This document shows positions 1-17,510 of a stretch of DNA of 64,000 nt, one piece after another. This stretch comes from Candidatus Parcubacteria bacterium (GTDB lineage Bacteria; Patescibacteriota; Minisyncoccia; Phycocordibacterales; UBA918). The stretch spans positions 105,892 to 169,891 of the forward strand of contig JAKFXN010000005.1 of the NCBI GenBank assembly GCA_021731405.1, given 5' to 3'. Numbering within the stretch: the first letter of the stretch is position 1; each line of letters begins with the position of its first letter. A program made the translations under genes and the position numbers. The notes below the pieces were generated by a model. That model ran no database searches and was not told where the DNA came from. It saw only the letters and a list, made by a program, of their open reading frames with translations.

Positions 1-3000
1 AACTGGAGAGTTATTTGTGACATCATACAAACGGAAATAGTAGACCGCGTTTACGCGTGCTGCTGCATGTCTAATAGTAAATGAATACTCTTGCGTAGTT
101 TCTGCAAAGTGTACGTGCCCCGTGGCTGCGTTAGGGCCAGTGTTGTGGCGTCCGCACCCAATACCTACCCCCGCCACACAAACATCTCCTCCAGTAAGAA
201 CCTTAGTACTGACTATTTGATTATCAGTCACTACAGCATCTTCGTAACACCAGAGAGAAAGGTCTGTACAGGTGGTTGTTGCAGCAACGTCTATCGGATT
301 AGTGAACGCCACGTCTTCAGAAAACTGTAGTTTAAATTTAATGTCTTCACCCTGTACGTTTCTTCTCTCATTTACATTAATCCGCAATGCAATGGCGTTA
401 CCATTCACTATATTGATAGGGGCAACGTCCTCGTTTGCGAGAGCTGTCAAAGGTGTTTCATTTTCAGAGTCATTGTACCATCGCCAGTTTTGTGTAGCGG
501 GACTAAAGCCAGCCGTCCTGATTTGCGGATAGTTACTATAGGTATCAAGTGGCGAGCCGTCACTATAGACTGCTCTAAAACAATACGTACTTTGTGGCGT
601 TGCACCGTTGTGTTGCAGATACCAATCATATTCAACATCGTCCCCATCATTTACAGGATACGGGTTTACTGCTGAAGGGCTTTCATGAACAAGGACACCA
701 GCTCGATTAGCTATAGAGATAAGGAGTTCTCCTCCGGTTGGAGGGTCGTTTGAAAGCGCTGTCCCGTCAGCAGTTCCAGTTGCTGAAAACCCTCGCCAGA
801 CGGTTCCGCTTGAAGCGTCTCCAACATCAGACCAACTTCCCCCATCTACTGCAGAGCACGTTGAAACACGGGTGGCGTACTGAAGTTTATAATTGAGAAG
901 TCCTGCGGGCATTGTGGCGTTAGCGGTACGAAGAGTCATCCGAATTCTCACCACATCACTCGTCCCAAGGGGTTCATCAGCAATCGTAATAGAAGTATTT
1001 TCTCCTAGGTTTGATGGTCCAGGTGGCCATGGATCAGTTGGGGTAAGGGCATTATTATCTGCGTAGAATCGGTAATAATTTTGTCTAATTGAAAGATCTG
1101 CCACCGGCCACTCGACCAGCTCAACACGGTACTGGAGTGCTGTACCAGTGTTACTTCTCCAAATTTGGTAGGTAGTTGTACTGGTAATAGTAAAACCCGC
1201 CATCGGTCGCGGATAGGTTGTATTGGCTCCTGCACCACTTGAGTTTGCGGAGATAGAGGTATTATTAAGAGCTTCGATTGGCGTAGAGAGTACTACCGAA
1301 AGAGCGAGTGGCGCAGTACCGCCGGTAGTAAGTCCGTTTGAACGTTGTACGACCATCGCTCCCCCACCTGATTCGATGTTTTCTATTACCCACGCCACAG
1401 AAGTTTGCTCAACCGCTACCGTCGCTCCTGATTCAAGCTGGAACGAAACTGCACCAATACTTGAAAGCCACACCTGGTCTCCGAAGTTGACAACGTTAGT
1501 GGTAGCACCAACTCGTCTTTGCGCATGGATAAATGTACGCGCTAAACTATTTACTGCAGTAATAGGTTCTGTCTCTGTGACTCCTGAGGCACTGTAGGTA
1601 TGTGATACTCTTTGCACATTCCAGTTTGGTCCAACAAATTCTACGACCGCATAGCTCACATCAATGGCACTAGCACCGTTGGCAGCTCGCCGTATGATAG
1701 GTGCTTGAAGAGCGGTATTCCACTCAGAAGTAACCTGACTCGCGTAAAAATTTCTTGCTGTATTACGGTTGCTTGAGCCAGTTACAAACACCACCACGTT
1801 ACTGTTATCGCTCACATTTGAAAGTACTGTGCCCGTAGCCACGACCGCTGTCGTATTAAATGCAAGTGTCCCAACTCCACGAACAACCATTTCATTATCT
1901 GTACCAGCGTTTCCTATAAACTCAACAATCTCCCAATCTACCCGGGTGTTGGAAGTAGCAGCGGGGGGTCTGGTAATGGTAAAGCTTGTGCTGATGTTGC
2001 TTGGATTTGAGATGTAAGCCGTAACATCATCAGCGTTTTGCCCGGCGGTGGCTACGTTGTTTCCAGCTCCAGTCTGATGTGAATTTGTGATTCTGACAAA
2101 TGCCCGCGTGCTACTGGCTGGTGCCACATAATCAACTCCGGCAGTGACTGTCGCTGAAGTCCCACTCACCTGCACCGATCCGCGCTGCACTTTAAAATCA
2201 CGTTTTGCAGCAGTGGTAACTTCAGCGTACTGAGAATAAGTGTTAAATGCAGTGCCGTTTGAAGAGGCTCTAAAGCAGTACGTAGTACCAAATGAGGTAA
2301 AACTGGTTGAGGTTAAACTAAACTCGACATCAAGATAGTCTCCAATCGGTATTGTAGTAGTGGAAGTCAACGACTCAGTATCACGAACTCCGCCGTTGGC
2401 GGCAATAAAACTTCCACTACCATTACTTACACCACCATTTGCAATTGAAATGTTGGTGGTTGTCTCACCGTTTGTGAGGAAAGCTGAGTTGTACATGTCC
2501 CAGCCATCTAAAGATGCGTTCACGTCTGTCCATACTGTAGCCATATCACAGGTAGTAATCTTTGGTGCATACTCGACGCGAAAGCGTGTCGGTACACTAG
2601 AAACTGAGCCAGTGTTGGTAATTCCAAGTCGCAGTCTAATCTCTTCATTTTGGGCAAATTCAGTCAAAGGTGTATTTTCGGTTCCTGCTGTTGCGGAAGA
2701 AGCAGTCACTTCAGTGCCGTTGTCAGTGCGCCAGTGGTATCCCAATTGCGTTACTATCGGACCCTGTACCGTAGTCTCACCGCTTATAGTAACCGCGCTT
2801 GAAGGCCCCACACTTGCCCCGCCACTCACGAGCACATCGTCAGCCGGCGAGGTAATTTCCAGATCTATTGTCTCTCCATTTTGAGCAGCATTTGAAACAT
2901 CATATACAACATACAAACAAAGAGCTGAAATAGAGGAGATACTCACGGTGTCTGTAAACACCGCCGTCTCACCCACTCCATCAAAGCCATTTGTGCTTGT

Positions 3001-5601
3001 CGCTCCGTACTGTAGTTCAGTACCACCATATGACACACTGGAGCAATTATATGGAAGTGTAGTATCAAACTCATAGACTAGACGGACATTCTCTATATCA
3101 GTTGCACCGTCAACTGTCCCAAGTTCGCTTATTTCTACAGAGGTTACGTCACGTGTAGTTGCATTCTCAATCACCGCGAAGCCACCGCCGGCGTATACAT
3201 TTGCCTCCAGCACGTCGGCTGTAGCTGTCTGTGTGCCAAAACTTTGGACTGACACGTCAGCCGCAATGGTTGCTTCTGGGTAGTGACTATAGACACTAAG
3301 TGGAGTACCGCTTCGTGTCATTCTAAAACAATATGTTTGACCCTCAGTCGCACTGGTTGACGCCACAATAGAAAACTCTGCCTCTATAAAGGCGTCAATC
3401 GCTAGTGTTACCGAGCCAGTGGTGTTTGTTGTGTCACGTACACCGCCATTGGAGGCCAAAAAAGTGGTTCCGGGTAAATCAGTTATTCCGCCACTTGATG
3501 ATGCAATATTGGTAGTGTTGTTTCCATCAGTTAAATTGGCAGAGTTAGACAATACAAAGTCAGCATCAACTGCCCCTACCGCTTCCCATGATGAAGTATC
3601 TGTACAAGCAGGCGCAGCGAGGCCGTATTCTAGTTGGTAAGTTGATGCAAGAGTTGAGGTTGAGCCCTGATTTGCCACACCAACCCGAATACGCCTCGGT
3701 ACACCAATTGATAAACTATTCAAAGGGGTATTGGGAACTCCAAGCGTCGCGGAAGACGCGGTCACCTCAGTACCATTGTCTGTGCGCCAGTGATATCCAA
3801 ACTGTGTAAGGTTTGGATCCACGATAGTTGTAGTGCCGGCAAGAGCAACGTCAGTATCTGGATAGACAAGAAAGCCACCCGATACGGTTATATCTGTCTC
3901 TGGATCTGCTACTGAAATTTCAATCGTATCACCGTCTCCAGCCGTTACTTCGACATCAAACACAGGGTAAATACACATACTTTGAGTGGGCAAAATAGAG
4001 ACTGGCGCATTGGTAAAACCGGCTACGCCATTGGCGCCTGAGAAGCCGCCACTTACGGTCGAGCCAAACTGCGCCTCACCTCCTGTATAAGATTCACTTA
4101 CACAGTTATAAGGAGCTGAAGTGTCGAATTCGTAAAAAAGTTCAACATTTTTTATATTATTTTGAGCTTGGACGGTTCCACTCTCAGTTATTACGATATT
4201 GCTGACCGTTTGACTTGAAAGCGACTCAAGCATAAATGCGCCCCCGACATAAAATGCATTTGCATCAGTGCGGGTCTGAGCTGTTTGTGTTCCGAGTGTC
4301 GTGAGTCGTATCTCAGGACCTATATCAGCGTTTGTGTCTCCAAAAATATCTTGAGTGCCGACGTTGTTGTACCAACTAGTAAACAAACGGTCATAGGACA
4401 TGATGTTCATATCAACACCATAGAAGTCACCTGCGGCACTATTGAGCGGACCTTGTTCTGCACCCCAACTAGTCATACTGTCAGTAGAACTTCGGTAGTA
4501 TACGTTTGCTGTCGCTGCTGTTCCAATGGTTGTTCTTGCGGTATAGGCTACATAAATATTGCCATTGTTTTGGTCTCTCCCAATTGCCACCTGTAAGAGG
4601 CCTCTCGTGGGATGGTTAGTAATAATATCAGCCGTACTTGACCACGAGCCGCTTGAATAAAGTCTTGTGCGGATGTCGTGGTCAGCAACAGTGAAGGTGT
4701 CATTGTCAGCAGTGTACGCAATGTAGATATCTCCCGTATCAGTATCGATAGTCGCAGCCATTCCAACGTCGTAGGTTGTGTTACGAATAGCTGAAGCATC
4801 TACAATTGTGAATCCAGACCAAATAGAACCATTCCAAGTAGATGAGCGAACCTGACTACCAGTACTGCGGTTTATAAGAAGTATGTTTCCCGCCGAGAGC
4901 GGCATGAGAATGCTCCAGCTATCAGCGTTTCCTTGTGGTGGTGTTCCAACAGCCCCCCAGTTGACTGCTAAGTTACAAGACGAGATACAGGAACGAATAA
5001 CGGTGGCGTTACCATCATCAGCCACAATATATATACGGCCATCAGTTCCTTTGGTAATACTATTTTCGTTTGTCCCAGCCGCATACACAGCGGCTGAACC
5101 AGCTGAAACGTTCACCGCTGTAACCAGAAGAAGTGTGTCGCTCGTAGTATCAAGACGGTTGTAAAAAACGTCGTCATCACCAGTATCAATAGTAGAGATA
5201 TGAATATTGGTACCGGTATCACCTGGAGTCCATTTGTCGTACCACACCGTTATACCAATACAGTCAGTCTGTGTGTCTACGACCACAAAGCTCCCCCACG
5301 TACCGCCACCATTAGTTGTCTTTCGGTAACCACACATTCCGCTACTCGGGGCTGCTCCATAACGGTGAAATTTATACCCGACTTGGTCGTCAATAAAGAC
5401 AGTAGATGCTCCGGACTGAGTGTGCACAGCAGCGGTTGTGTTTGGAGTTGCTTCAATAGTTACTTGAGCCGCCTCTGCTTCATTGGGCCAGAGTAACAAA
5501 ACATTTAAGAGTGTTGTGTTTGACACCTCAGCCAGAAAAGACAGCACTAAAAAGAGTGCTACTATTTTATTACCAATATTAAACAAACCCCGGAAATTCA
5601 T
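1..5601 (-). CDS. Very large secreted repeat protein, partial. The start codon is at 5601-5599 and the 3' end runs off the left window edge. It has a signal peptide and Thr/Ser/Gly-rich propeller-like repeats resembling modules of the giant protein.
   Basis: Manual reverse-complement translation from the ATG at 5601 gives MNFRGLFNIGNKIVALFLVLSFLAEVSNTTLLNVLLLWPNEAEAAQVTIEATPNTTAAVHTQSGAS... with no stop in the first ~250 codons checked. No other minus-strand ORF over 83 aa is listed in 1-5600, which fits one open frame truncated by the window edge. All plus-strand ORFs here look like antisense shadows. Confidence 0.6.
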   Translation of the reverse strand, partial: MNFRGLFNIGNKIVALFLVLSFLAEVSNTTLLNVLLLWPNEAEAAQVTIEATPNTTAAVHTQSGASTVFIDDQVGYKFHRYGAAPSSGMCGYRKTTNGGGTWGSFVVVDTQTDCIGITVWYDKWTPGDTGTNIHISTIDTGDDDVFYNRLDTTSDTLLLVTAVNVSAGSAAVYAAGTNENSITKGTDGRIYIVADDGNATVIRSCISSCNLAVNWGAVGTPPQGNADSWSILMPLSAGNILLINRSTGSQVRSSTWNGSIWSGFTIVDASAIRNTTYDVGMAATIDTDTGDIYIAYTADNDTFTVADHDIRTRLYSSGSWSSTADIITNHPTRGLLQVAIGRDQNNGNIYVAYTARTTIGTAATANVYYRSSTDSMTSWGAEQGPLNSAAGDFYGVDMNIMSYDRLFTSWYNNVGTQDIFGDTNADIGPEIRLTTLGTQTAQTRTDANAFYVGGAFMLESLSSQTVSNIVITESGTVQAQNNIKNVELFYEFDTSAPYNCVSESYTGGEAQFGSTVSGGFSGANGVAGFTNAPVSILPTQSMCIYPVFDVEVTAGDGDTIEISVADPETDITVSGGFLVYPDTDVALAGTTTIVDPNLTQFGYHWRTDNGTEVTASSATLGVPNTPLNSLSIGVPRRIRVGVANQGSTSTLASTYQLEYGLAAPACTDTSSWEAVGAVDADFVLSNSANLTDGNNTTNIASSSGGITDLPGTTFLASNGGVRDTTNTTGSVTLAIDAFIEAEFSIVASTSATEGQTYCFRMTRSGTPLSVYSHYPEATIAADVSVQSFGTQTATADVLEANVYAGGGFAVIENATTRDVTSVEISELGTVDGATDIENVRLVYEFDTTLPYNCSSVSYGGTELQYGATSTNGFDGVGETAVFTDTVSISSISALCLYVVYDVSNAAQNGETIDLEITSPADDVLVSGGASVGPSSAVTISGETTVQGPIVTQLGYHWRTDNGTEVTASSATAGTENTPLTEFAQNEEIRLRLGITNTGSVSSVPTRFRVEYAPKITTCDMATVWTDVNASLDGWDMYNSAFLTNGETTTNISIANGGVSNGSGSFIAANGGVRDTESLTSTTTIPIGDYLDVEFSLTSTSFTSFGTTYCFRASSNGTAFNTYSQYAEVTTAAKRDFKVQRGSVQVSGTSATVTAGVDYVAPASSTRAFVRITNSHQTGAGNNVATAGQNADDVTAYISNPSNISTSFTITRPPAATSNTRVDWEIVEFIGNAGTDNEMVVRGVGTLAFNTTAVVATGTVLSNVSDNSNVVVFVTGSSNRNTARNFYASQVTSEWNTALQAPIIRRAANGASAIDVSYAVVEFVGPNWNVQRVSHTYSASGVTETEPITAVNSLARTFIHAQRRVGATTNVVNFGDQVWLSSIGAVSFQLESGATVAVEQTSVAWVIENIESGGGAMVVQRSNGLTTGGTAPLALSVVLSTPIEALNNTSISANSSGAGANTTYPRPMAGFTITSTTTYQIWRSNTGTALQYRVELVEWPVADLSIRQNYYRFYADNNALTPTDPWPPGPSNLGENTSITIADEPLGTSDVVRIRMTLRTANATMPAGLLNYKLQYATRVSTCSAVDGGSWSDVGDASSGTVWRGFSATGTADGTALSNDPPTGGELLISIANRAGVLVHESPSAVNPYPVNDGDDVEYDWYLQHNGATPQSTYCFRAVYSDGSPLDTYSNYPQIRTAGFSPATQNWRWYNDSENETPLTALANEDVAPINIVNGNAIALRINVNERRNVQGEDIKFKLQFSEDVAFTNPIDVAATTTCTDLSLWCYEDAVVTDNQIVSTKVLTGGDVCVAGVGIGCGRHNTGPNAATGHVHFAETTQEYSFTIRHAAARVNAVYYFRLYDVTNNSPV

Positions 5602-5643: not shown

Positions 5644-7188
5644 TTATTCTTGCACAACCATTGACGATGAAGATGCTCTATAAGGCTCTATGATGAGGTC
5701 AAACTCGGTTGACGCACTCGTTTCTATATTTTCAAATACTGCTTCTGATTCGAGTAGTGAGGTTAAGTCTAAAGTAAGAGCTTCAGTTGTTGTGGCGGTT
5801 GCAGGTGGCACATTTGCGTTTGCGGTAGAGGTACCTACGCCATCCACTACTTCTTCAACCTCAGATTTGAGGCTTGGCTTACTCTGAATAAGCGCCCTTG
5901 TTTCGCCAGTAGAGTCACTGGCAGGAAGTTCATCGGGAAGGTTCCGAGGTAACGTGTCTAGGTCTATAAACTTACGAGCTAGTACGTCATATCCCTTAGT
6001 AACAATATCTCCATTTGGGTGAAGTGAGTCATAGACAAAAACCATGCGTGGGTTTGAGACAGACATACCATCTGGATCGTCAACAGAAACGTACGTGTCA
6101 TTCTCAATGTCATACATTTCTATAGTCTTTTCACTTGTACCAGTGTAGCGATTCCATACAACGAGTGAGCCGTGAATATACGGCGCGATATTATGGCTAG
6201 AGGTTTTTGTTATCTGAGATTCTGTCTCACCGTCAAATAAAATGATGTTCCACCCTCCATCAATCCAACGCTGCCAAACCGTGTACGAACCTTGCCTGGT
6301 TGGCTCCATGTTGTTTTCGCCTGTTCTGGTGAGTTGTGTCTCTTCTTCTTCCTCAATATCAAAAGATATAATCTGGTAGCGATCGTCAATCAAACGATGC
6401 CACACCAGCGTATTGGTGTTTTGGTCAAAGTATGGAGAAGCGTCGTCCATAGAGTTACTGGTAACCTGTGTCTGTACTCCATCTCGAACCAAAAATATCT
6501 CAAGGTCACCTTCCTCATCAGGAGCAGAAAAAAGGGCGTCATCAAGAACATTTTCTTGTGGCTGATGACAGTAAAAAGAACCGGTAGCGAGTTGTGTACA
6601 TTCGTCTTTATTAAAAGAAAACTCAGAATCACTCTCGGTAACAGACACCATTTCGTGTGTCACATTTGTCTCAAGAAGCACCTCCTCTGTTTCGGGTATT
6701 TCTTCAACTACCACGTCGCCATCTTCCAAAGATTCTTCAGTCTCAACTGGTTCCTCGGTATTTATTGGATCTGTATCATCTTCAGCTGAAGCATCTTCTT
6801 CTGACTCCGGTTCTTGGCTAGCCTCATCATCTTCCGATACAGAATCTCCTTCCTCAACATCAACAGCTTCTTCGGAGGACTCAACCGGAGCCTCTGTCAT
6901 CACATCTTCTTCGAGAGAAATGTTCTCTGGAATATTTTCTTCGAGTTGAATCTCGGAAATAGTCTCGATTTCCTCAATCGTTTCCTCTACGGATACTGTC
7001 TCGTTCGCATAGACTTTTTCAACTCCTTGCACAAAGAATGAGACTACCAGCAAGAAGGACATCAGGAGACTAAAGGTGCTTGAGTATACAAAACGGTACA
7101 AAAATAAATTGTTTTTACAATTAGCAAAATCACCTATCACAGGTGTACTGTAAACTTTTGTATTACTTTTTTGAATTTTTTTACTCAT
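5644..7188 (-). CDS. Secreted/membrane-anchored protein with a long acidic Glu/Asp/Ser stalk followed by propeller-like repeats (LVWHRL / TVWQRW / LVVWNRY). Function unknown.
   Basis: 525-aa ORF in the track. The likely true start is the internal Met (MSKKIQKS...) followed by a hydrophobic signal anchor. The W-containing strand motifs repeat at about 45-aa spacing. Confidence 0.6.
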   Translation of the reverse strand: MSKKIQKSNTKVYSTPVIGDFANCKNNLFLYRFVYSSTFSLLMSFLLVVSFFVQGVEKVYANETVSVEETIEEIETISEIQLEENIPENISLEEDVMTEAPVESSEEAVDVEEGDSVSEDDEASQEPESEEDASAEDDTDPINTEEPVETEESLEDGDVVVEEIPETEEVLLETNVTHEMVSVTESDSEFSFNKDECTQLATGSFYCHQPQENVLDDALFSAPDEEGDLEIFLVRDGVQTQVTSNSMDDASPYFDQNTNTLVWHRLIDDRYQIISFDIEEEEETQLTRTGENNMEPTRQGSYTVWQRWIDGGWNIILFDGETESQITKTSSHNIAPYIHGSLVVWNRYTGTSEKTIEMYDIENDTYVSVDDPDGMSVSNPRMVFVYDSLHPNGDIVTKGYDVLARKFIDLDTLPRNLPDELPASDSTGETRALIQSKPSLKSEVEEVVDGVGTSTANANVPPATATTTEALTLDLTSLLESEAVFENIETSASTEFDLIIEPYRASSSSMVVQE

Positions 7189-7296
7189 CAGTCGCAGCCA
7201 TACGTAGGATAGAGTAAGCAAATCCCATCACTATCTAATAATAGCAATATTTTTCAATCTTTTTTTAACTGTTATCAACAGTAGTTTGAGGAGAAA

Positions 7297-8052
7297 CTAA
7301 GCACCGAAGAACGATTTTGCCAGAATAATTGAGAAATCGACAAAGTTCATTTTTCCATCACTATTGAAATCATGGGTCAGGGTTTTACTATTCCAAGCAA
7401 CCATAAAAGCACTGATGTCTCTCAGGGTTACTTTACCGTCACCATCTATGTCTGCAGTAATATTGACTCCTAGGTTGGCAGAAATAGCGCTTGGGTCTTC
7501 ATCTTGGTCATATATGTAAAAACTTTGCTTTGAGGCGCTACCAGTACCAGAAACAGCAACCGGGGTTCCTCTTCCGTCACCAGCCAAGAGCTGGGCTTCG
7601 CGGACAAAAAATTCTGTGTTGCCACTCACTTTCGCTTGAGCTTTAATGGTGGCAATGAGATGTTCTCCCACAAAGCCTCGTCTAAATGTACCTCCGCCGA
7701 GAGTGATGGTTGATCCTTCAACAATGGGTTCTTGTGTCCAAACTGTTAGCACCGACTGTGCTTTGTCCACTGAAACAACCTCTACTTTATCTGGTGAAAA
7801 ATCAATCGTGATATCGATTGCGTTTACAGGAACATGTGCAGAGGCATAAATATCAATTGAAAAGCGCTCTCCTTCCATCACTGCAGTTTGGGACGGCTCT
7901 AATCGAATATAGGACTTGTCAGTAGAGACGACAGACGCACTCAGGACTGCAAATACACCTAGTACCAGTGGAAACATGTACTTCACTGTCAAACCATCCT
8001 GAACTGGTCTTTCAGGCCTAAATATCCTAAAAAGCGCTTTCAAATAGTTCAT
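7297..8052 (-). CDS. Small secreted protein with an N-terminal cohesin-like beta-sandwich and a C-terminal type-I dockerin (two DxDxDG Ca-binding loops).
   Basis: C-terminus DIDGDGKVTLRDISAFMVAWNS...DFNSDGKMNFVDFSIILAKSF matches the duplicated F-hand dockerin pattern. The N-terminal region is paralogous to the cohesin-like domains of 8762-10489, 10493-11569 and 42786-44360. Confidence 0.65.
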   Translation of the reverse strand: MNYLKALFRIFRPERPVQDGLTVKYMFPLVLGVFAVLSASVVSTDKSYIRLEPSQTAVMEGERFSIDIYASAHVPVNAIDITIDFSPDKVEVVSVDKAQSVLTVWTQEPIVEGSTITLGGGTFRRGFVGEHLIATIKAQAKVSGNTEFFVREAQLLAGDGRGTPVAVSGTGSASKQSFYIYDQDEDPSAISANLGVNITADIDGDGKVTLRDISAFMVAWNSKTLTHDFNSDGKMNFVDFSIILAKSFFGA

Positions 8053-8708
8053 GGCGTAACAAGAGCAGAGCGAAGTTGTGATGCTTCTGCGGTTGCTGCT
8101 GCGAGTTTTTGTTGAACTACTTGCACCTCAGTCTGAATTGTTGTAATTGTTTCACTTGATGCCGTTTCGCCGTTCATAAGGGCATTTATAATATTGCTTT
8201 GAAGCGCAACTAATGCATAAAATTGTGTACTAATTTCTTTTTCCTTAGCTACCAAACTTTTCCATGAGTCAAGTCGTGCATCTTCGTAGTTTTCTTTGCC
8301 AAGGAGACTTCTTTGTGAGACCCCTTCTTCAAGTAGTGTTACTTTTTGCTCGAGAAGCAAACTCATGACAGCCCTTCGTGTTGCGGGAATTGATCCACAT
8401 TGGTTGAAAAGCTCAGTTAAAGTACGGAGTTCTGCAGTAGTCAGTCCTTTATCTAGTGAGGCAAGGAGTTCGTCGTATTGAAGATTTTTATCACTTGGAC
8501 ATTCGTGGATGATTTCTTTTACATTTGCAAGGACACCGCCACGCCCGATCTCGCGAGCTACTTCCACAGCAGCTGCTTCAGTTTCAATTATCAAAGTATC
8601 GTACGCAGACCGAATATCATGGAGTCTTTTTTCAACCACCAAACTCGAACATATAAAGACTAAAAGAATTCCTACCGCAACTCCGTACACTGTTTGTTTG
8701 TTTTTCAT
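8049..8708 (-). CDS. Hypothetical membrane-anchored protein with an N-terminal TM and a helical ectodomain. Its stop overlaps the downstream gene start by 4 nt.
   Basis: 219-aa ORF with N-terminal hydrophobic segment GVAVGILLVFICSSLVV. The ATGA-type overlap with 7297-8052 suggests translational coupling. Confidence 0.55.
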   Translation of the reverse strand: MKNKQTVYGVAVGILLVFICSSLVVEKRLHDIRSAYDTLIIETEAAAVEVAREIGRGGVLANVKEIIHECPSDKNLQYDELLASLDKGLTTAELRTLTELFNQCGSIPATRRAVMSLLLEQKVTLLEEGVSQRSLLGKENYEDARLDSWKSLVAKEKEISTQFYALVALQSNIINALMNGETASSETITTIQTEVQVVQQKLAAATAEASQLRSALVTP

Positions 8709-8761
8709 ATGTGACTAACTGAATATTAACCGTTCTGACTATGTGTCTATAATAGCTCTTT

Positions 8762-10489
8762 TTATACCAACTGTTCAACGTCATCAACTTCCTTTTCAAC
8801 CCGTGTTTGCGCTCCTTTAAGAGCGCCGCTGAGTGAGACAAACATATCCTCTTCTGCTTTTGAGAGTTTTTTAGTCTTTTTTGCTTGAGTGAGACGCTCT
8901 TGTTCTTGACCCAAGACCTCATGTAGGTGAGCAAATTCACGCGCCAAAATAACAAGAGCTTCTTGTGATTCGGTAGAAACTCTACCTTTAAACCGGCGCA
9001 TGTATGCAACAAGGAACCACATAGATAAAACAAGTAGTACGAGCATTGCTAGAAGCGGAATTACCACTGACAGAATGTTTATGAGGAACGTTCCTATTTG
9101 GACATATCCAGGTTGCTGGACAGCAATTCGTATTGTCTCAGAAGTCTCTGATTGGGCACCAAACTCATCAATTGCTTTTGCCGTAAGTTCGTAGACACCT
9201 TGTGTGAAGGTGCCTTCAGGAATCAAAGTAAAGACTCCCGAGTCGTCAGCTGTGAGATTGTAGAGAGTCGGCTCAGCTCCAATCTTTTGGACACTCACTT
9301 CTACCTGCGCCCGTGGTCTTGTGAGTCCGCGCACTACTGGAATCACTTCTTCATTTATTTCATTTGGATATTCCGTGAATGTTGGCTTATCAAACGCTGA
9401 AAGTGTCAGTGAGAATGAACTTACGGTACTATTTCCAGCTCTATCGAAGGCCTCTACGATAACTGAATGTAGGCCTGGATCAAGTTCCTTCAGCTCAATT
9501 TTCTGCTCATTTTTTTCATCCAAAAATTCATAGGCTTCTTCATTATCAATTTTTATTGCATATCGGTTCACTCCAGAAGCACTGTCTTTCACTTGTACCA
9601 AAAGAGTCTGTTTTGGATTTGAAAGATCAGCTCCTTCTGGTAAGCTCAAGGCGAGTTCAGAGGGTGCTTCTGTATCTACCGCTAACCGATAGTGACTCAC
9701 TCTACCCCACCCGTCTTCATTTCGAAACTGAAGGTGAAAATATGACTCTCCTTCTGGTAAGTCGTTAAGTGTAATGGTAGAAATTGGTGTCTCGTACACG
9801 CGAGTCGGAACTGAACTTGGTGACTCATCAAGCAGCGTTCGTACTGAGGTTACTCCTGCAGGCAGCGTCCATGACAGTACAGCATTCTTTGTTTTATACC
9901 AACCTTCTCTATCGCTGTGTGTACTTGATTCAATTTGCGGAGCTCCTGGAGTATTTGCCGGAGCCACATATTCAACTACCTCGGGTGTTGGAGAGGTGGA
10001 AGGGGCTTGAATAGTGTACGTGCCACCGTTCATACTAGAGAGCACATTGGTACCCATTCCGTCATTTGCCAGCACTGCTCCTCCAGTCAAAGTAACTCTA
10101 GCAGTGCTGGCATTAGTAGTTCTGAAAGTAATATTAAAAACTGTTCCCGATGAACCGGTGTAGCCAGTTGGAAGCCCTCCACTGAAAGTTACCGTGCCAG
10201 CAGAATTTGAAAAACTAGGTTCTGTCACCCAAAGACTAAAAATGGAGTTAGATCTATCAACAGACACCACTGTGACTTCTTGTGGATTAAATTTTATGGT
10301 TCCTTCAGCAGCATTGATAGATTTTCCAGCAGAGTTTACTACTACTCTGGCAGTAAAGGTTGCCCCGGCAGAATACACACCAGTGGCCGGCGACATAGAC
10401 ATCGTGGCAGCAGACGATACTGCAGGCAGCAGCAAACTTAGAAGGGTGATTCCAAAAAATACGTAGGTGTTGCGGAGGGAAAGTGACAT
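8762..10489 (-). CDS. Anchoring-scaffoldin-like surface protein: signal peptide, cohesin-like domain, Ig-like/FN3-like domains, a C-terminal TM helix and a charged coiled-coil cytoplasmic tail.
   Basis: N-terminus MSLSLRNTYVFFGITLLSLLLPAVSSA then ATMSMSPATGVYSAGATFTARVVV...FSLWVTEPSFSNSAGTVTFSGGLP (cohesin-like). TM LINILSVVIPLLAMLVLLVLSMWFLVAY followed by the basic/acidic tail KKLSKAEED...VEKEVDDVEQLV. Confidence 0.65.
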   Translation of the reverse strand: MSLSLRNTYVFFGITLLSLLLPAVSSAATMSMSPATGVYSAGATFTARVVVNSAGKSINAAEGTIKFNPQEVTVVSVDRSNSIFSLWVTEPSFSNSAGTVTFSGGLPTGYTGSSGTVFNITFRTTNASTARVTLTGGAVLANDGMGTNVLSSMNGGTYTIQAPSTSPTPEVVEYVAPANTPGAPQIESSTHSDREGWYKTKNAVLSWTLPAGVTSVRTLLDESPSSVPTRVYETPISTITLNDLPEGESYFHLQFRNEDGWGRVSHYRLAVDTEAPSELALSLPEGADLSNPKQTLLVQVKDSASGVNRYAIKIDNEEAYEFLDEKNEQKIELKELDPGLHSVIVEAFDRAGNSTVSSFSLTLSAFDKPTFTEYPNEINEEVIPVVRGLTRPRAQVEVSVQKIGAEPTLYNLTADDSGVFTLIPEGTFTQGVYELTAKAIDEFGAQSETSETIRIAVQQPGYVQIGTFLINILSVVIPLLAMLVLLVLSMWFLVAYMRRFKGRVSTESQEALVILAREFAHLHEVLGQEQERLTQAKKTKKLSKAEEDMFVSLSGALKGAQTRVEKEVDDVEQLV

Positions 10490-10492
10490 AGG

Positions 10493-11527
10493 TTATACAA
10501 TATCTTCAGACATGTCTTCTTTCGTCTTTGTTGTAGCAGAGAGTTTTCTTCTTCGTCGCACAATGAAATACGTTCCCAAGAGAAGAAGGATGAAAAGCAC
10601 GCTGAGAGAACCGAGGGCAATGTATGAGTAGAGTTCGTTTCGCGATAGTGTCTGTTGTGATTCATCTGGAATATAGGTAGCAATATATTCATTACCAGCC
10701 TTATCAATAGCTTTTACGCGGATAACACTATTGAGACTTTGATCATTGAGTACATATGGGCTTTCACCTCGGAGCCAAGCGCTTCCGACACCTCCCCAAG
10801 TGAAGTTACTAAACTCTAAAACCGGCTCCTCCATTACCTCATAATGGCTGATACCTGTCTGTTTGTCAGTAGTACTAAAGACAATAAAATACTTTCCATT
10901 GAAGTAAACTCCTTCTGAGTCTTTCTCTAAAGTGATACTAAACTCCTCTGGTGCTACATCATCCGCTCGCACCGCTTCACGCCAATCATCAACGATTCCT
11001 GAACCAGCGTTTTTATCAAGCGTAAAAGTCCCTCCAAGTGCAGTCAAAGGTGCTCGAGTGCCTTGACCATCGTTTAGAAGAACTTGGGTCTCTGGAGCAA
11101 AATCAATCCTGGCGGTAGTATCGTCAGAACCTCCAATCTGCATACCAGGCGAACGGAATATAATTTCAGCAATAACATTAGTGAGGCGAGGATCCCCTTC
11201 AACTCGGCCGCAGTATCCATTTGGAATACCGCCAGCAAAAGTAATGGTCTTTTCCTCTTTGTTTATAACAGGTGGCTCTATCCAGACATTAAGAATCGAC
11301 TTTCCAATTGAAATATCTACTGGTTGGATATTATCTGTATACGTGAGTACTACATCAAGGGCGTTTATACATTCCCCAGCCTGACTGTCGGGCATAAGTC
11401 GTACCGCCGCTGTCAAAGCGTCGCCTCGATACAGCGTCCCAACGCCAGGATCAATATAGATGGTAGCTGCTTCCGAAACAGGAGCATACAACAAGAAAAG
11501 GAACGCAGCGAAACGCACAATGTGAAT
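10493..11527 (-). CDS. Cohesin-like surface protein with a C-terminal TM anchor and a short basic tail.
   Basis: Probable start at internal Met MIHIVRFAAFLFLLYAPVSEA (track start 11569). Cohesin-like ATIYIDPGVGTLYRGDALTAAVRL...ILNVWIEPP...ITFAGGIPNGYCG. C-terminal TM LGSLSVLFILLLLGTYFIV then RRRRK. Confidence 0.6.
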   Translation of the reverse strand: MHIVRFAAFLFLLYAPVSEAATIYIDPGVGTLYRGDALTAAVRLMPDSQAGECINALDVVLTYTDNIQPVDISIGKSILNVWIEPPVINKEEKTITFAGGIPNGYCGRVEGDPRLTNVIAEIIFRSPGMQIGGSDDTTARIDFAPETQVLLNDGQGTRAPLTALGGTFTLDKNAGSGIVDDWREAVRADDVAPEEFSITLEKDSEGVYFNGKYFIVFSTTDKQTGISHYEVMEEPVLEFSNFTWGGVGSAWLRGESPYVLNDQSLNSVIRVKAIDKAGNEYIATYIPDESQQTLSRNELYSYIALGSLSVLFILLLLGTYFIVRRRRKLSATTKTKEDMSEDIV

Positions 11528-11582
11528 CATGTTGTAAGTATAGCAAAACAAGCATTCTCTAATCTTCACTGTACACAGACAA

Positions 11583-11650: not shown

Positions 11651-12799
11651 CTAGAATACTGGCGTTGCTACGTATGTCAGCGTAGCTGTGTAATCGCTGC
11701 CCGCTTCTTGTAGCGGACCTACTTCAACGGTATATCCTACACGTGTGATACCGACTCCTTGCGTTGTCGAATCAGCTGGTCCATCGTGTCGGAAGATTTC
11801 TACTGGTGTAGTAGAAGCAGATACATACATTCGTCCGCCGCCCCCTACATCAAAGTAGTTATCGAGGTCAGGATAAATGGTATCGTCGTTTGTTGTGATT
11901 CCCCAGTGTCCATAGGTATCTTCGTCACCTAGGGCAGATGTTGGACTCTCATAAAACAACGGTGTGTCTGTATATGCTCCATTACTATAACCATCGATAT
12001 CAGCACCTGTGGCTGATGTGAGTTGTTGGTCAGCATGTACTGTAACGACAAAGCCGTTAGCTGCGTTGGTACTTACTTCTAAGTCCTGCGCAGCGGTGAC
12101 TGCTGTATCAGCTTCTAGAACTCCAAAAGGAATTTCAGTAGAAGTTGTTGTACCGCTCGTTGTGTCTCCGTTGATTGCAGCTCCCGCATTTACACCTGTA
12201 ACAGTGAAATCGAAAATTGTTTCAACAGAGGCAGTAACTGTAACAACGTCAACAATTGCTACTCGCGTCGCACCAGTATCACTACTTCCAACAGTAAGCG
12301 TAATTTCGTACGAGTTTACAGCAGGGTTAGTGATTTGGTTTGAACCAGCTCCACCAGTAGTGGCGTTGGTACCAATTTCAATGGTGACAGTAGCATTTGC
12401 TCCGATAGTACTTGTGCCACTTTCAATGTCAATGACATCTCCAGCGGCAGTAACGTTCCAGTCCGCCCCACTGGCAACACCGTCGATAAGACTTTGCTCA
12501 ACGCCGTTGACGTTTAGGTCAACATCGGCAGCAACGATGGTTCCAACATCTGTAAAGACGCCAGTACCGAAGTTGATTGAGATTGTCTCACCAGCAGCGA
12601 GGCCAGTTGGTGTAACGAAGGATAGTGTGTGGTTGGATACTACCCCAGGTGCAGAATCTGAGAGTGTGTTACTAAATGAGATGACATTTGCAGCTTCCGC
12701 TCGGAATAAAGGTACACCTACGAACCATAAAATGATTGCGAGGGTAACAACTGCGGTGATTGCTTGGAGCAACGTGAACGTTGTATTCGTTCTAATCAT
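11651..12799 (-). CDS. Secreted Thr/Gly-rich beta-sandwich surface protein with a possible distant WxL-like C-terminus. Paralog of 53041-54132.
   Basis: Signal anchor then AEA|ANVISFSNTLSDSAPGVVSNHTLSF. The C-terminal region contains YGHWGITTND and ends TLTYVATPVF, alongside WGHWGLTSDD...TLMYIATPTF in the paralog. Confidence 0.55.
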   Translation of the reverse strand: MIRTNTTFTLLQAITAVVTLAIILWFVGVPLFRAEAANVISFSNTLSDSAPGVVSNHTLSFVTPTGLAAGETISINFGTGVFTDVGTIVAADVDLNVNGVEQSLIDGVASGADWNVTAAGDVIDIESGTSTIGANATVTIEIGTNATTGGAGSNQITNPAVNSYEITLTVGSSDTGATRVAIVDVVTVTASVETIFDFTVTGVNAGAAINGDTTSGTTTSTEIPFGVLEADTAVTAAQDLEVSTNAANGFVVTVHADQQLTSATGADIDGYSNGAYTDTPLFYESPTSALGDEDTYGHWGITTNDDTIYPDLDNYFDVGGGGRMYVSASTTPVEIFRHDGPADSTTQGVGITRVGYTVEVGPLQEAGSDYTATLTYVATPVF

Positions 12800-13366: not shown

Positions 13367-14497
13367 TTATCCGCTCCAATTAAACAGCAAAATAGAAAAG
13401 TCCTCAATACTCACCCTCCCGTTACCATTTATATCCGCAGGAGGATTAGAGTTTCCTCCGTCTGTCTGCCACCAGAAAATCAAAATAGAAAAGTCGATTA
13501 GGTTTACTCGTCCGTCACGATTGAGATCTGAAGGAGTAGTTACCTGTCCATCAACGCCAACAAAAAGTTGTAGGGTGGAACTAAAACTACTTTGTGTAGT
13601 CAATTGTCCGGTCCCCGTAACCGAACGAGCCCGAAGGGTATGCGGAGCAACTGAGAGTGAGGCGGTGTTTAAAGTAAGACTCCAATTTCCCTCCGCGTTT
13701 GCCGTGGTGCGTTCTATAGTTGAGCCTGTATCTATATGTACTTCTATTCCTGCGCTAGGAATAGATTGTCCACTTACAGTCACTATGTCTCCCGGGTTTA
13801 CGTTTTGGTTTGGAACACGAATAGTCGGCGGCAAAATAACACCAGCAATATTTGTAACCGCACCCTGCGTCACATCAAAGGTAGTGTTGAGAGTAATTGA
13901 GCGAGTCCCTGCAACGTCTGTGGCCCAAAAGCCAAGTGAGGCGGTGCCTGGTGAAGCGTCGGTAGTAAAATCAAATCTTCCTGCCCCATTGGCGCGTACA
14001 CTACCGACTGTTTCTGAGTCAAGAATTATATTGATAGTACGGCCAGGGTAGGCGAGGCCCGTGACACTTATGATAGTATCTCCCAGTTCAGTGGTACTTC
14101 CTCCGCTACCACCACTTCCTCCTCCCGAGCTTCCTCCTCCTCCCGAACCAGCTGGTTCAACCTGACAAATTGCTGAACAAAAGTCTCCATTGTCATTATT
14201 ACCATCATCACATTCTTCAGAGAATTGTGTCTGTAAAATTCCGTCCCCGCAATACGGACCAAAATTACAAATAGTGCTGCACTGTCGTCCAACTATAGTT
14301 GTACTATACACACCAGTCTCACCTGGAGCATCACACTGCTCACCATCGTCTACAAGTGCATTACCGCAGATACTTAAACTAAGGGTGGTTGATGCTGTAC
14401 CTGCAAAAAAAGTTTGTGCGAAAGCGACCTCCCCTTGGAGTAGTAGGAGTACAAGGCAAGAAAGTAAATAGAAAGTAAATCTCATAAGTCTATCCAA
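13367..14497 (-). CDS. Secreted dockerin-bearing protein: N-terminal Cys-rich repeats of the Myxococcus-type CGDG...CDDGN...C pattern, a Gly-rich linker, two Ig-like domains and a C-terminal type-I dockerin.
   Basis: YCGDGILQTQFSEECDDGNNDNGDFCSAIC repeat. C-terminus DLNRDGRVNLIDFSILIFWW...DINGNGRVSIEDFSILLFNWSG (two dockerin segments). The C-terminal half is paralogous to that of 45148-47058. It overlaps the upstream gene by 8 nt. Confidence 0.7.
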   Translation of the reverse strand: MDRLMRFTFYLLSCLVLLLLQGEVAFAQTFFAGTASTTLSLSICGNALVDDGEQCDAPGETGVYSTTIVGRQCSTICNFGPYCGDGILQTQFSEECDDGNNDNGDFCSAICQVEPAGSGGGGSSGGGSGGSGGSTTELGDTIISVTGLAYPGRTINIILDSETVGSVRANGAGRFDFTTDASPGTASLGFWATDVAGTRSITLNTTFDVTQGAVTNIAGVILPPTIRVPNQNVNPGDIVTVSGQSIPSAGIEVHIDTGSTIERTTANAEGNWSLTLNTASLSVAPHTLRARSVTGTGQLTTQSSFSSTLQLFVGVDGQVTTPSDLNRDGRVNLIDFSILIFWWQTDGGNSNPPADINGNGRVSIEDFSILLFNWSG

Positions 14498-15455
14498 CCT
14501 GTCGGCGAGAAAGACGTCTGTTGTAAATGAAATACAGAACGAGGATCAAAAGTGCAAAGATTGGCAGCAAGATTGAGATCTTATGCGGGACCGAGAGTCC
14601 ACTAAAGCCAAAGCCTGCTTGTTGTAGTGTGCCGTACGGAAGAATACTGAGACTAACTTCCCCTTCTTGCTTAACTTCATCGCCATTATAAATACTGTAC
14701 CGCGCAATATAGTTTCCGGCTGGAAGACGAGTTGGAATCTCAGCCAGTACTTCTTCAGTTGCGTAAGGAGCAATCTCAGTTATACGTCCCTTATGATCTG
14801 TTTCTTCAAGGAGAACATTTCCAGCGAAGTCAAAGATTCTAAATGCAACACGTGAAGGTGAAATATCTACGTTACCAGTGTTTTCGATTAACATAGTGAA
14901 ATTAATCTTTCCAGGGAAATACAACCAACCAAGTTTCTTTCCTTCATTCAAATCAGAAAGTCCAATTTTACGTACTCGAAAATCTTTTATTTCTCTATCA
15001 ATAACAGTGAGACCTATATCAACCTGCGCACCAAGTGAAATACTCACCGCACCAGCAGCTACTTGATCATCATCAGGTACAGTCTTGATTCTAATGACAC
15101 CTTTATAGTCTTTGAATTCAGCGTCATCAGGAACCGTTACTCGGACAGTCATTGGTACTTTCTGTACGCCTCGTGGCAATGGCACAGACTCTCCTTCTAC
15201 AATCTGGATCCAGTCCATGATTTCGGGAGCGTCCACGCTAATTTGGGCCTTCTGGGGCACATCAGGATTACCGCGCACCAACAAAATCTGTTGTTCGTAA
15301 GTGGAGTTTCGAGTCAGGCTCGTATTGCGTACATATGGTGGCGTAATACCAAAACCCGCTCGCACTATCTCAGTTGAGAGCACAAAAAAAAGCAGGCAGA
15401 TGGAAATAACCTTCTTCATATAAACAATATCGAGTACATCTCTTGCACTCTCCAA
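14490..15455 (-). CDS. DUF916-like cell-surface protein with an N-terminal signal, Ig-like ectodomain and a C-terminal TM plus basic tail (ends ...LVLYFIYNRRLSRRQVG).
   Basis: N-terminal GFGITPPYVRN...ILLVRGNPDVPQKAQISVD resembles the start of DUF916 proteins from lactobacillus/enterococcus WxL loci, recalled from memory. The C-terminus has LPYGTL then a hydrophobic stretch and an RR tail. Paralog of 51829-52974. Confidence 0.5.
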   Translation of the reverse strand: MESARDVLDIVYMKKVISICLLFFVLSTEIVRAGFGITPPYVRNTSLTRNSTYEQQILLVRGNPDVPQKAQISVDAPEIMDWIQIVEGESVPLPRGVQKVPMTVRVTVPDDAEFKDYKGVIRIKTVPDDDQVAAGAVSISLGAQVDIGLTVIDREIKDFRVRKIGLSDLNEGKKLGWLYFPGKINFTMLIENTGNVDISPSRVAFRIFDFAGNVLLEETDHKGRITEIAPYATEEVLAEIPTRLPAGNYIARYSIYNGDEVKQEGEVSLSILPYGTLQQAGFGFSGLSVPHKISILLPIFALLILVLYFIYNRRLSRRQVG

Positions 15456-15464
15456 TTATCGAAA

Positions 15465-15542: not shown

Positions 15543-17405
15543 CTACCAGTCTGTACTACTTGAGGTCACGGCGTAGAAGGTGTTTAGCCCTGTGTAGGCA
15601 CCAGCTACAGTAATCGCGATCGGTACTTCAATTCCCCAGTACGTTACACCTGAGTTAGGTGATGAGGTGGCTGTGGTCTTTGGTACTTTGAGCTCGAGGA
15701 GCTGTTGTGTTGTAGAAGAAAGATTGTATCCACTTCCGTACGCAACAGAACTTGTTCCGAACTCTTGTTGGTAATCTGGAATAGTTGAAGAAGCACTGTT
15801 TGCACATGGACTTCCCACCGCAAATCCTGGACACATCGCCTCACCTTCAAGTTCTTGGTTGAGCCCGGTGTTACCTACCGAGAGAACAGTTGTCGTTGCG
15901 TCGAGCGTTCCGGTGTTGTCTCCTGGTTCGAGTGATCCATATGGAATTTCTCCTGTAATCAAGTCAATGGCTGGGAAACTAAGGAGAGTCACTGGACTTG
16001 AGCCAACTGTTCTTGTTCCAGTAGCGTTGTTGTCATCGATACCAGCAATTGCTGCTACCCAATCATCGGCAGCAAATGGAGAGATAACGTCTGTTGGTTC
16101 AGCAACGAACCAGAGTGGGAATGTGCAAGACCAAAGTTGAGTTGGGTCTGATGGTCCACCACAACTAGTGGTAGATGCTGTACATGAGAGGTTCCAGACG
16201 TTGCTTGGGGCTCCACTTGGATAACAGTTGTTTGGATTGTATGAGCCGGCAAGACCAGAACAAGTTGATGTTCCAATACTACTTCGGTAAAGAGAGACTA
16301 CATATCCGACCATCTCGTCACCTCCAAGAGCATTTTCGCAACTGTTGGCATCGGAAGTTTCAAAGGCGAGTGGGAAGTTTAGAGTTTCTCCCGCTTCTAC
16401 CGTGAGTGAGATGTTTAATCCTCCGTTGACTGAGATACTTCCCGCAGCCACTGTTGGCGCTACGTTGCTTACCACAAAGCCATCATTTTCACCTTGAGAT
16501 CCACCTACTGCTGTGTGTCCATGGTTGTCTACAATGAAGCCGTAAGCATCAAAAGTATCATCTTGGATAACGCTTGGAAGAGTGAATGCCGCTGTAGCGT
16601 TTGCAGTTACTGGAACAGTAGTGGTAGCGATAGTTCCGCCGATACCACAACTTGCTGTTGTTGTACTGTAGTCGTTTGCATTACAGACATGCAGTGTAAG
16701 CACGTCTTCTCCACCAACAACGTCAGGGTCAGTTGAAGTTGAGAAGAAGGTTACAACGGCTCCAGGGTTAGCTGGTGAGTTGTTGTAGAAAGATGTAAAG
16801 CTTGGTCTGAAGTTTACATGGAAAGGAGAAGAGTTAGTTGCATTAGTACCTTGAGAACTTACGTCATTACAACGTGGGTTCACAGGATCGTCGTCACATA
16901 CCCAACCATACCAGTTGTTGCTTTCAGCAAACGGTGCGACTTCTGATGTTGTGGTTGCGACCCGGGCTTGCGCAAGAGCAGCTGTGGCGGTAGAGACTCC
17001 CCACTGCACTCCACCCACACACTCTGGCGGCTCAGTACCGAGCGTACCGAGACTGGCTGCAGCGTTTGGCGTCGGTGTAGCACTGCCACTACAGATAATC
17101 AAGAAATACGGCGCATTTCCAGAGTTGTCAGCCCGAGCTGTCCACGAGACTTGTCTTCCTGAGTTAGTCGGTGTGCTGGTTGAAGATTCAAACTCTTCTA
17201 CAGCAAAATCAATCCAAATCGGAGGAGTGTTGAGTACGGTCAGTGTCGTAGTTGCGGTCTGTGCTTCTACTTTTAGGAGCTCTGTTTTTCCTGCGTTAAA
17301 GAGGAACACGAAGGCAAAAATGAGCACTCCAGAAACAGCAGCCGCAATGGTGATTTTGCCTGCAGTTTCTAGGTAATTAAATTTCTCTACTTTGTTGTAC
17401 AACAT
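15543..17405 (-). CDS. Secreted 620-aa protein with an N-terminal signal anchor. It is a paralog of the C-terminal ~500 aa of the giant protein, including the shared YWGI(E/A)VP C-terminal domain.
   Basis: C-terminus SGVTYWGIEVPIAITVAGAYTGLNTFYAVTSSSTDW against the giant protein's TDVYWGIAVPFTASNAAHTGTNIFTAIGID. The upstream 100 aa also align (IPYGSLEPGDNTGTLDATTTVLSVGNTGLNQELEG against INYGALSGDSDTGSFNPTTTITNLGNTPINVDVEG). Confidence 0.65.
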   Translation of the reverse strand: MLYNKVEKFNYLETAGKITIAAAVSGVLIFAFVFLFNAGKTELLKVEAQTATTTLTVLNTPPIWIDFAVEEFESSTSTPTNSGRQVSWTARADNSGNAPYFLIICSGSATPTPNAAASLGTLGTEPPECVGGVQWGVSTATAALAQARVATTTSEVAPFAESNNWYGWVCDDDPVNPRCNDVSSQGTNATNSSPFHVNFRPSFTSFYNNSPANPGAVVTFFSTSTDPDVVGGEDVLTLHVCNANDYSTTTASCGIGGTIATTTVPVTANATAAFTLPSVIQDDTFDAYGFIVDNHGHTAVGGSQGENDGFVVSNVAPTVAAGSISVNGGLNISLTVEAGETLNFPLAFETSDANSCENALGGDEMVGYVVSLYRSSIGTSTCSGLAGSYNPNNCYPSGAPSNVWNLSCTASTTSCGGPSDPTQLWSCTFPLWFVAEPTDVISPFAADDWVAAIAGIDDNNATGTRTVGSSPVTLLSFPAIDLITGEIPYGSLEPGDNTGTLDATTTVLSVGNTGLNQELEGEAMCPGFAVGSPCANSASSTIPDYQQEFGTSSVAYGSGYNLSSTTQQLLELKVPKTTATSSPNSGVTYWGIEVPIAITVAGAYTGLNTFYAVTSSSTDW

Positions 17406-17510
17406 ACTAATGAACTATTTATAAATACTTTACTTCATATACTATTGTAACCAATGTAAAGCAACACTTCTCTTTAGTTATACACATTTTATCTACAGGT
17501 TATGTACCTG

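Follow-up and report, generated by a model that had tools for sequence, protein, structure and literature searches.

The 64-kb window analyzed here (contig JAKFXN010000005.1, 64,000 nucleotides) is from a genome of the Paceibacteria, which belong to the Patescibacteria, also called the candidate phyla radiation (CPR), and encodes a set of cohesin and dockerin proteins together with pilin-like and chaperone-like genes. The wider question is how the cells of Paceibacteria hold on to hosts or surfaces. Every gene of the window is found on the minus strand, including the six open reading frames (ORFs) that were named in an earlier note on this DNA and that were recovered at the positions given there, and the genes are designated by the letters used in Table 1. 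Lineage-specific family hidden Markov models (HMMs) were built in this analysis and run on all six reading frames of the 64 kb. Exactly four cohesins (in proteins A, C, D, and L) and three dockerins (in A, F, and N) were detected in the window, and no more.

The gathering scores of the Pfam models are 24.1 bits for Cohesin (PF00963) and 22.9 bits for Dockerin_1 (PF00404). The Cohesin model was matched above its gathering score by C (31.7 bits) and L (34.4 bits), whereas A gave 14 bits, below the threshold, and the Pfam scan found no match in D. The N-terminal domains of all four proteins are mutually significant by BLASTP, with E values from 3e-57 to 2e-7. Comparison of the D family with the C family using hhalign provided a probability of 99.7% (E = 4e-26), and comparison with the A family provided 97% (E = 7.8e-11). 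The cohesin of D is detected by the lineage HMM with an E value of 4e-45. The earlier note had described the four domains as paralogous and cohesin-like; the paralogy and the fold were recovered, and the Pfam match that it had proposed as a check was obtained for C and L. Some relatives of C are already annotated automatically as "cohesin domain-containing protein".

The AlphaFold2 model of A has predicted local distance difference test (pLDDT) values of 80–90 over the β-sandwich. When this model was used as the query in Foldseek, the top 50 matches in the Protein Data Bank (PDB) were almost only cohesins, and the best were the non-cellulosomal entries 2jh2 (4e-9), 2vo8, and 2xdh. The β-sandwich (jelly-roll) of the A and C models can be superposed on the solved cohesins, and every other fold ranks below the true cohesins. 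The matches by fold also include a non-cohesin domain, CLIPPER (9ifr), which comes from a fibrillar adhesin. Sequence searches of the PDB with the family profiles of A, C, D, E, and G returned no cohesin, pilin, or chaperone. The likeness to cohesins in the PDB is thus recovered by fold comparison and not by sequence profiles. The modules of A, C, D, and L are real members of the cohesin family.

There is one cohesin per protein. In C and L the cohesin is borne on a stalk of immunoglobulin (Ig)/FN3-like domains, and in D it is followed by one further β domain. A signal peptide and a C-terminal transmembrane (TM) helix are predicted for C, D, and L, and in the AlphaFold2 model of C the TM helix runs on into a long cytoplasmic helix. 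The C-terminal TM anchoring that had been proposed for the cohesin proteins, in place of SLH domains or sortase signals, therefore holds for these three, while A has an N-terminal hydrophobic segment instead. No SLH domain was detected by Pfam in the cohesin proteins. A sortase gene adjoins the gene for a SpaA/SdrD-like protein of 1303 aa, the C-terminus of which is hydrophobic and positively charged (59157-63790, minus strand). The genome thus has sortase anchoring, of which the cohesin proteins make no use.

The Dockerin_1 model was matched above its gathering score by A (24.4 bits), F (33.7 bits), and N (28.0 bits). Both 12-residue Ca-binding loops, with Asp or Asn at positions 1, 3, and 5 and Asp at position 12, are present in each of the three dockerins, and each loop is followed by a helix; in the model of A these helices are located at residues 210-222 and 237-249. 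The loop residues D201, D205, G206, D212, D228, N230, D232, and D239 of A are invariant in an alignment of 52 orthologues. The Ca ligands of F are highly conserved among its orthologues, and the dockerin loop is kept in 54 of 54. In the N protein of the window, Ser replaces Gly at loop position 6, a position that is mostly Gly in the N orthologues. Protein F also matches Pfam Big_6 and DUF4215. The dockerin of A (class 2) is of a sequence class distinct from the class 1 dockerins of F and N. The modules of A, F, and N are real type-I-like dockerins, as the earlier note had stated for the duplicated C-terminal segments of these three proteins, and A is the one small protein in which it had recognized both a cohesin and a dockerin.

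The secreted stalk proteins that carry the dockerins are mid-sized (251 aa for A, 376 aa for F, and 636 aa for N). No catalytic domain or carbohydrate-binding module (CBM) was found in F, N, or A with the Pfam and NCBIfam models; their contents are Ig-like, Cys-repeat, pilin-like, or cohesin domains. Among the ORFs scanned, which comprise nearly all of those of at least 150 aa, the only carbohydrate-active Pfam match is a GH18 at 56232-57431, in agreement with the non-cellulolytic setting and lone GH18 that had been described previously. The lineage HMMs detected no dockerin in the GH18 protein, and neither cohesin nor dockerin in the 6967-aa, ~2050-aa, and 1303-aa SpaA-like proteins. The presence of cohesins, dockerins, and a GH18 gene in one window could suggest a genuine cellulosome-like complex of enzymes that break down polysaccharides. 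Three defining features of a cellulosome were looked for: dockerin-bearing carbohydrate-active enzymes, a scaffoldin with multiple cohesins and a CBM, and wall anchoring by SLH domains or sortase. None of these was found, and the system is consequently not a cellulosome; the domain content has effectively refuted this explanation, which is left with a negligible probability. The enzyme-free dockerin proteins and the giant proteins without modules also weaken the suggestion of the earlier note that large surface proteins are being assembled into a layer.

The organization of the genes is conserved. The best 120 relatives of C are 56–89% identical to it, and those with a name belong to Ca. Kaiserbacteria, Paceibacterota, or Patescibacteria. 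The A family contains 831 proteins (53–93% identity), and the members of the L family are 64–82% identical. One genome per species was scanned for relatives of C, and 80 loci were fetched. A relative of C is present in 313 species-level genomes, and all of the 80 inspected are Patescibacteria/Paceibacteria. All of the loci examined are from metagenome-assembled genomes. To our knowledge, there are no cultured Paceibacteria. The gene order in Ca. Kaiserbacteria RIFCSPLOWO2_02_FULL_45_11 is that of the window: ABC ATPase, MacB/FtsX permease, H, G, F, E, D, C, B, A, Z, and the gene for the ~2050-aa protein. The same order is found among the 80 loci wherever the contig flank suffices; B sits between C and A in most of them, and the downstream position of Z is also conserved. 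Cohesins in D, C, and A with dockerins in F and A were found in 48 loci. The most divergent loci (34–39% identity) keep F-D-C and are without A. Of the cluster genes that were measured, the one for the MacB/FtsX-type permease is conserved best, with a mean pairwise identity of 0.81, and the ABC ATPase J is 63–95% identical to the copy in the window, with a C-terminal extension of ~215 aa that has no domain match.

A second block, with the order N, Hsp20, L, and the giant protein, is kept in three other genomes (loci L084-L086), one of which is a complete Nomurabacteria chromosome. Giant orthologues of 5528–7538 aa adjoin the L cohesin gene in these three loci. A 12-gene operon of fixed order is therefore conserved across the Paceibacteria, and cohesin and dockerin genes are linked twice, independently. 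The coordinates of the genes and modules are collected in Table 1.

Table 1. Genes, Domains, and Modules of the 64-kb Window
Feature	Coordinates	Strand	Length (aa)	Description
~2050-aa protein	1..5601	-		first 1867 aa of a ~2054-aa product, cut by the window edge
Z	5644..7221	-	525	N-terminal TM helix, acidic region, β-propeller repeats (weak NCBIfam beta-propeller/TolB matches)
A	7297..8052	-	251	N-terminal hydrophobic segment; cohesin aa 45-172 (nt 7537-7920); dockerin aa 196-251 (nt 7300-7467)
B	8049..8708	-	219	N-terminal TM helix (TM prediction); conserved operon member
C	8762..10489	-	575	signal peptide, cohesin aa 28-162 (nt 10004-10408), disordered linker, three Ig/FN3-like domains
C, C-terminal part	8762..10489	-		TM helix ~aa 466-494, then helical cytoplasmic tail of ~80 aa
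D	10493..11569	-	358	signal peptide, cohesin aa 33-186 (nt 11012-11473), one further β domain, C-terminal TM helix; true start probably M14 at nt 11530
E	11651..12799	-	382	Pam-pilin-like; signal peptide, N-terminal domain, conserved linker, C-terminal domain
F	13367..14497	-	376	signal peptide, Cys-rich repeat (DUF4215), Gly-rich linker, two Ig domains
F dockerin	13370-13540	-		aa 320-376; class 1
G	14490..15455	-	321	signal peptide, β-rich ectodomain, C-terminal TM helix; candidate pilin chaperone
H, I, J, K	15543..21748	-		upstream part of the conserved cluster; Pfam and NCBIfam matches
H	15543-17405	-	620	surface protein
I, J	17511-20188	-		I, MacB/FtsX-type permease; J, ABC ATPase with C-terminal extension
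K	within 15543..21748	-		three FN3 domains
6967-aa protein	21769..42672	-	6967	between L and K; Pfam DUF2341 and Ig_Rha78A_N
L	42786..44360	-	524	signal peptide, cohesin aa 40-173 (nt 43842-44243), Pro/Thr linker, Ig-like domains, TM helix, helical tail; closest paralogue of C
Hsp20 gene	44374..44838	-		Pfam HSP20
N	45148..47058	-	636	pilin-type signal peptide, N-terminal domain and linker, middle domain, Gly-rich linker, two Ig domains
N dockerin	45151-45312	-		class 1
S	51829-52974	-	381	DUF916-like TM-anchored chaperone candidate
T	53041-54132	-	363	second Pam-pilin-like protein

Several features of the two blocks bear on which modules might bind each other. The closest cohesins are those of C and L (49% identity, versus 30–36% for the other pairs), and the closest dockerins are those of F and N (69% identity, versus 37–44% for the other pairs). 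The L gene is one gene away from N, and the C gene is three genes away from F. The C/L cohesins and the F/N dockerins look like the product of the duplication of a cognate pair. In F the dockerin is the best conserved part, with a mean pairwise identity of 0.80 versus 0.56 for the Ig part across 40 genomes, and in C the cohesin is the most conserved part (0.63 versus 0.52 for the stalk). These observations can be weighed against the alternative that the modules do not pair at all, in which case the cohesin-like sandwiches would have ligands on hosts or glycans as their partners, and the EF-hand pairs that resemble dockerins would do no more than stabilize their proteins or sense calcium. Orphan dockerin-like and cohesin-like modules are said by Peer et al. 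(2009) to be common outside cellulosomes, and the failure of the sequence profiles to match any solved cohesin and the presence of the CLIPPER domain among the fold matches would also fit such functions. This alternative is considered unlikely, since linkage of cohesin with dockerin genes was seen in all of the inspected genomes, in two separate conserved blocks, the closest cohesins accompany the closest dockerins, the strongest constraint within F falls on its dockerin, and the cohesins rank ahead of other folds.

Because the dockerin of A is of a different class, A may bind to D, to C, or to itself. Self-binding would allow A to be the core of the system: the dockerin of one A molecule would bind to the cohesin of the next, and the resulting head-to-tail chains or mesh would have C or D as the anchor and F and N as side decorations. 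Protein A is conserved, bears both modules, has a dockerin unlike those of F and N, and has a precedent in Amy4/Sca1 of Ruminococcus bromii (PMC4611034). The most divergent loci, however, retain F-D-C in the absence of A; a core of A chains is rated as distinctly improbable.

The neighbors of the cohesin and dockerin genes include relatives of pilins. Pam pili were described in 2026 in the saccharibacterium Ca. Mycosynbacter amalyticus, and they are reported mainly in Saccharimonadia and Microgenomatia (bioRxiv 10.64898/2026.03.03.709456). In the Pam pilins an N-terminal sandwich is combined with a donor linker strand and with a C-terminal domain that is Ig-like and strand-deficient, and the proposed accessory proteins are chaperones with a C-terminal TM helix, a tip that has the acceptor only, and a terminator that is TM-anchored (bioRxiv 10.64898/2026.03.03.709456). 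The NCBIfam model NF058581 (CPR_Pam_pilin_C), for which the cutoff is 55 bits, was matched below this cutoff by E (E = 3.4e-5, 24 bits) and by T (E = 2.9e-6, 27.4 bits), the latter in two stretches that cover both ends of the model. Proteins E and T are 46% identical. Of the 39 members of the E family, 27 match NF058581 at E ≤ 0.01 and match no other NCBIfam model.

By tblastn, the ~2050-aa protein of the window shares 63% identity along 1867 aa with its 2054-aa counterpart in locus L001. In the L001 protein the last 170 aa are matched by the C-terminal domain of E (E = 2e-9) and by that of T (5e-12). Among the pilin parts, the ~2050-aa protein thus contains the C-terminal (acceptor) domain only, whereas all three parts are present in E and T. 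The ORF-poor stretch at 1-5600 had been considered as an rRNA or a pseudogene; this assignment was rejected, since Rfam gave nothing and the stretch is the ~2050-aa gene that crosses the window edge. In other genomes this gene is followed by an S-like (DUF916-like) gene.

Residues 3-216 of N align with residues 9-196 of E by hhalign (98.1%, E = 7e-14), a region that spans the signal peptide, the N-terminal domain, and the linker. After the linker N diverges from E: there is no pilin C-terminal (acceptor) domain, and a dockerin is found at the end. The G and S families are paralogues by hhalign (98.5%, E = 1.6e-15). Both proteins have a signal peptide, a β-rich ectodomain, and a C-terminal TM helix, and each gene is beside or near a pilin-like gene. 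Protein S matches Pfam WxLIP_PGBD/DUF916 at 29.6 bits, above the gathering score, and the G family profile matched nothing among the PDB sequences. On the basis of their domain architecture and position, G and S are candidates for TM-anchored pilin chaperones.

These neighbors also bear on the idea, put forward in the earlier note, that the cohesin–dockerin pairs arrange very large surface proteins into an ordered supramolecular layer. The giant secreted proteins (6967 and ~2050 aa) are conserved neighbors of the cohesin genes, and C has an ectodomain similar to the Ig-tandem stalks found in adhesins and S-layer proteins, as such a layer might lead one to expect. The giant proteins themselves, however, are devoid of cohesins and dockerins, and with a single cohesin per scaffold, and four cohesins and three dockerins in the window, there is no multivalency for a lattice. 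The neighbors resemble the parts of a fiber and not sheet-forming proteins, which favors the tethering of a fiber or stalk over an S-layer-like sheet. An ordered layer is accordingly thought to be quite unlikely.

The reading that we prefer, with a probability of about 0.5, is that the membrane cohesins would tether dockerin-bearing stalk proteins, possibly as the base of a fiber. The dockerins of F and N, and that of A, would plug in a Ca-dependent manner into the membrane cohesins of C, L, and D, and the dockerin proteins would thereby be tethered to the cytoplasmic membrane in a cell without an outer membrane. The C/L cohesins would probably pair with the F/N dockerins, and A would serve as an adaptor or as a head-to-tail linker. 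More speculatively, the cluster may also encode a Pam-like donor-strand fiber. In such a fiber the ~2050-aa acceptor-only protein could be the tip, E and T the shaft, and G and S the TM-anchored chaperones. Protein N could cap the proximal end of the fiber and be fastened by its dockerin to a membrane cohesin, so that the cohesin–dockerin pair would fill the role that has been proposed for the TM-anchored terminator PamR in Saccharimonadia. Donor-strand exchange is suggested here by domain logic only, namely the acceptor-only tip, the three-part architecture of E and T, and the absence of an acceptor domain from N. In its most ambitious form the proposal would be that a cohesin–dockerin plug, in place of a sortase, usher, or TM terminator, fastens a donor-strand-exchange fiber with a giant tip adhesin to the cytoplasmic membrane of Paceibacteria, and that this cluster is then the main host-attachment organelle of a class that is very large and uncultured. 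This extended form is tentative and on balance doubtful.

A number of points weigh against the tethering proposal and its extension to a fiber. We infer the pairing of cohesins with dockerins and the assignment of partners; for binding itself the sole evidence is genetic linkage. The partial correlations between distance matrices are weak, with values for the F dockerin of 0.24 with the C cohesin, 0.15 with the A cohesin, and -0.01 with the D cohesin, and the assignment of partners by correlated evolution (40 genomes) was dropped since these correlations are too weak. The matches of E and T to the Pam pilin model (24–27 bits) fall well short of 55 bits, and the best member of the family also scores below this cutoff. 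No Pfam match was found for G. Protein F has no pilin-like part and no role in the fiber model, nor does the model explain B, Z, H, or the ABC transporter of the MacB type; the Hsp20 protein is likewise without a role. The publication on Pam pili names neither cohesins, dockerins, nor Paceibacteria (bioRxiv 10.64898/2026.03.03.709456).

Other features of the region were also recorded. No Pfam match and no recognizable domain beyond the TM helix were found in B. The Hsp20 gene is flanked by N, which encodes a secreted dockerin protein, and by L, which encodes a membrane cohesin protein; this is an odd location for a cytoplasmic chaperone. A noncoding gap of ~570 bp is found between F and E (12800-13366), and the corresponding gap is ~1.2 kb in the Kaiserbacteria locus L001. 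Strong terminator-like hairpins are found on the minus strand at 13342-13310, after F, and at 15514-15480, after H in the gap 15456-15542. These hairpins, which are consensus matches only, hint at three transcription units: [K-J-I-H], [G-F], and [E-D-C-B-A-Z-...]. The last ~250 aa of the 6967-aa protein resemble the C-terminus of H (E = 2.8e-16). This shared C-terminal domain was considered as a Pam-type acceptor and rejected, based on a probability of 2.5% against the E family by hhalign.

Three tandem paralogues at 48919-51410 (minus strand), which are 38–46% identical, have an N-terminal TM segment and an FGE-sulfatase-like domain, and they are followed by an ABC exporter (47126-48892, minus strand). 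The same set is found upstream of N in L086. The genes at 54452-59136 (minus strand) encode a DinB/ImuB-type polymerase, the GH18 protein, a LexA-like S24 peptidase, and a CAP-domain protein. The same four genes are found in the same order upstream of a pilin-like gene in L085, and the conserved region therefore extends to ~58 kb.

The four cohesins and three dockerins of the window, its pilin-like and chaperone-like genes, and its two giant proteins make up a compact and conserved set of parts that is amenable to experiment. Should the modules pair in the proposed way, the cohesin–dockerin principle would extend from enzyme complexes to the anchoring of a surface appendage on the monoderm-like envelope of CPR bacteria, and it would also be connected with the newly described Pam pili. 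The organism need not be cultured for the small domains to be expressed and tested, and these domains would supply new orthogonal cohesin–dockerin pairs for protein engineering.

No description of this system was found in the literature on dockerins or cohesins in Parcubacteria, Paceibacteria, Patescibacteria, or CPR bacteria. The nearest published remark concerns an essential dockerin-domain envelope protein in the saccharibacterium Southlakia (PMC10633639). Structurally, the cohesins of A and C are matched best by those from Archaeoglobus fulgidus (2xdh) and from the toxin and glycosidase complexes of Clostridium perfringens (2jh2, 2vo8, and 2w1n). The cohesin–dockerin pair of A. fulgidus is functional (PMC12484212). 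As in these non-cellulosomal pairs, the cohesins of the window are single and have no cellulose-degrading context. The modules of C. perfringens are located on enzymes, whereas the carriers described here are enzyme-free, and in contrast to both organisms the cohesins here are found on type-I membrane proteins with cytoplasmic tails that are encoded in a class-wide 12-gene operon.

The anchoring and adaptor scaffoldins of clostridia and ruminococci (for example, OlpA/OlpC, ScaE, and ScaC) provide a second comparison, and in its function the system would come closest to these scaffoldins and to non-cellulosomal pairs such as that of A. fulgidus. The logic that we propose is the same, in that a cell-bound cohesin would capture a dockerin-bearing protein. 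Protein A resembles Amy4/Sca1 of R. bromii, in which a cohesin and a dockerin are combined in one protein that may self-aggregate (PMC4611034), and A could likewise be an adaptor or self-aggregate. Unlike the scaffoldins and the R. bromii amylosome, there are here no carbohydrate-active enzymes, CBM, or multi-cohesin scaffoldin, and the anchor is a TM helix instead of an SLH domain or a sortase signal.

The Pam system is also specific to CPR bacteria. The likenesses to it would be pilin-like proteins with an N-terminal domain, linker, and C-terminal domain (with the weak match of E and T to the Pam pilin model), chaperone candidates (G and S) with a C-terminal TM helix, and a candidate for the acceptor-only tip. 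The proposed terminator N differs from that of the Pam system, since it has no TM helix and carries a dockerin, and TM anchoring would fall to a separate cohesin protein. The WxL/Csc clusters of Firmicutes are similar in that S matches WxLIP_PGBD (DUF916) and that S and G both consist of a signal peptide, β domains, and a C-terminal TM helix, but neither E nor T was found to contain a WxL domain. Through the link of S and G to DUF916, the Pam-like systems and the WxL clusters may be related, which is offered as a lead only. What is distinct in the Paceibacteria is the combination of TM-anchored single-cohesin receptors with cytoplasmic tails, the absence of enzymes, and a conserved association with pilin-like genes.

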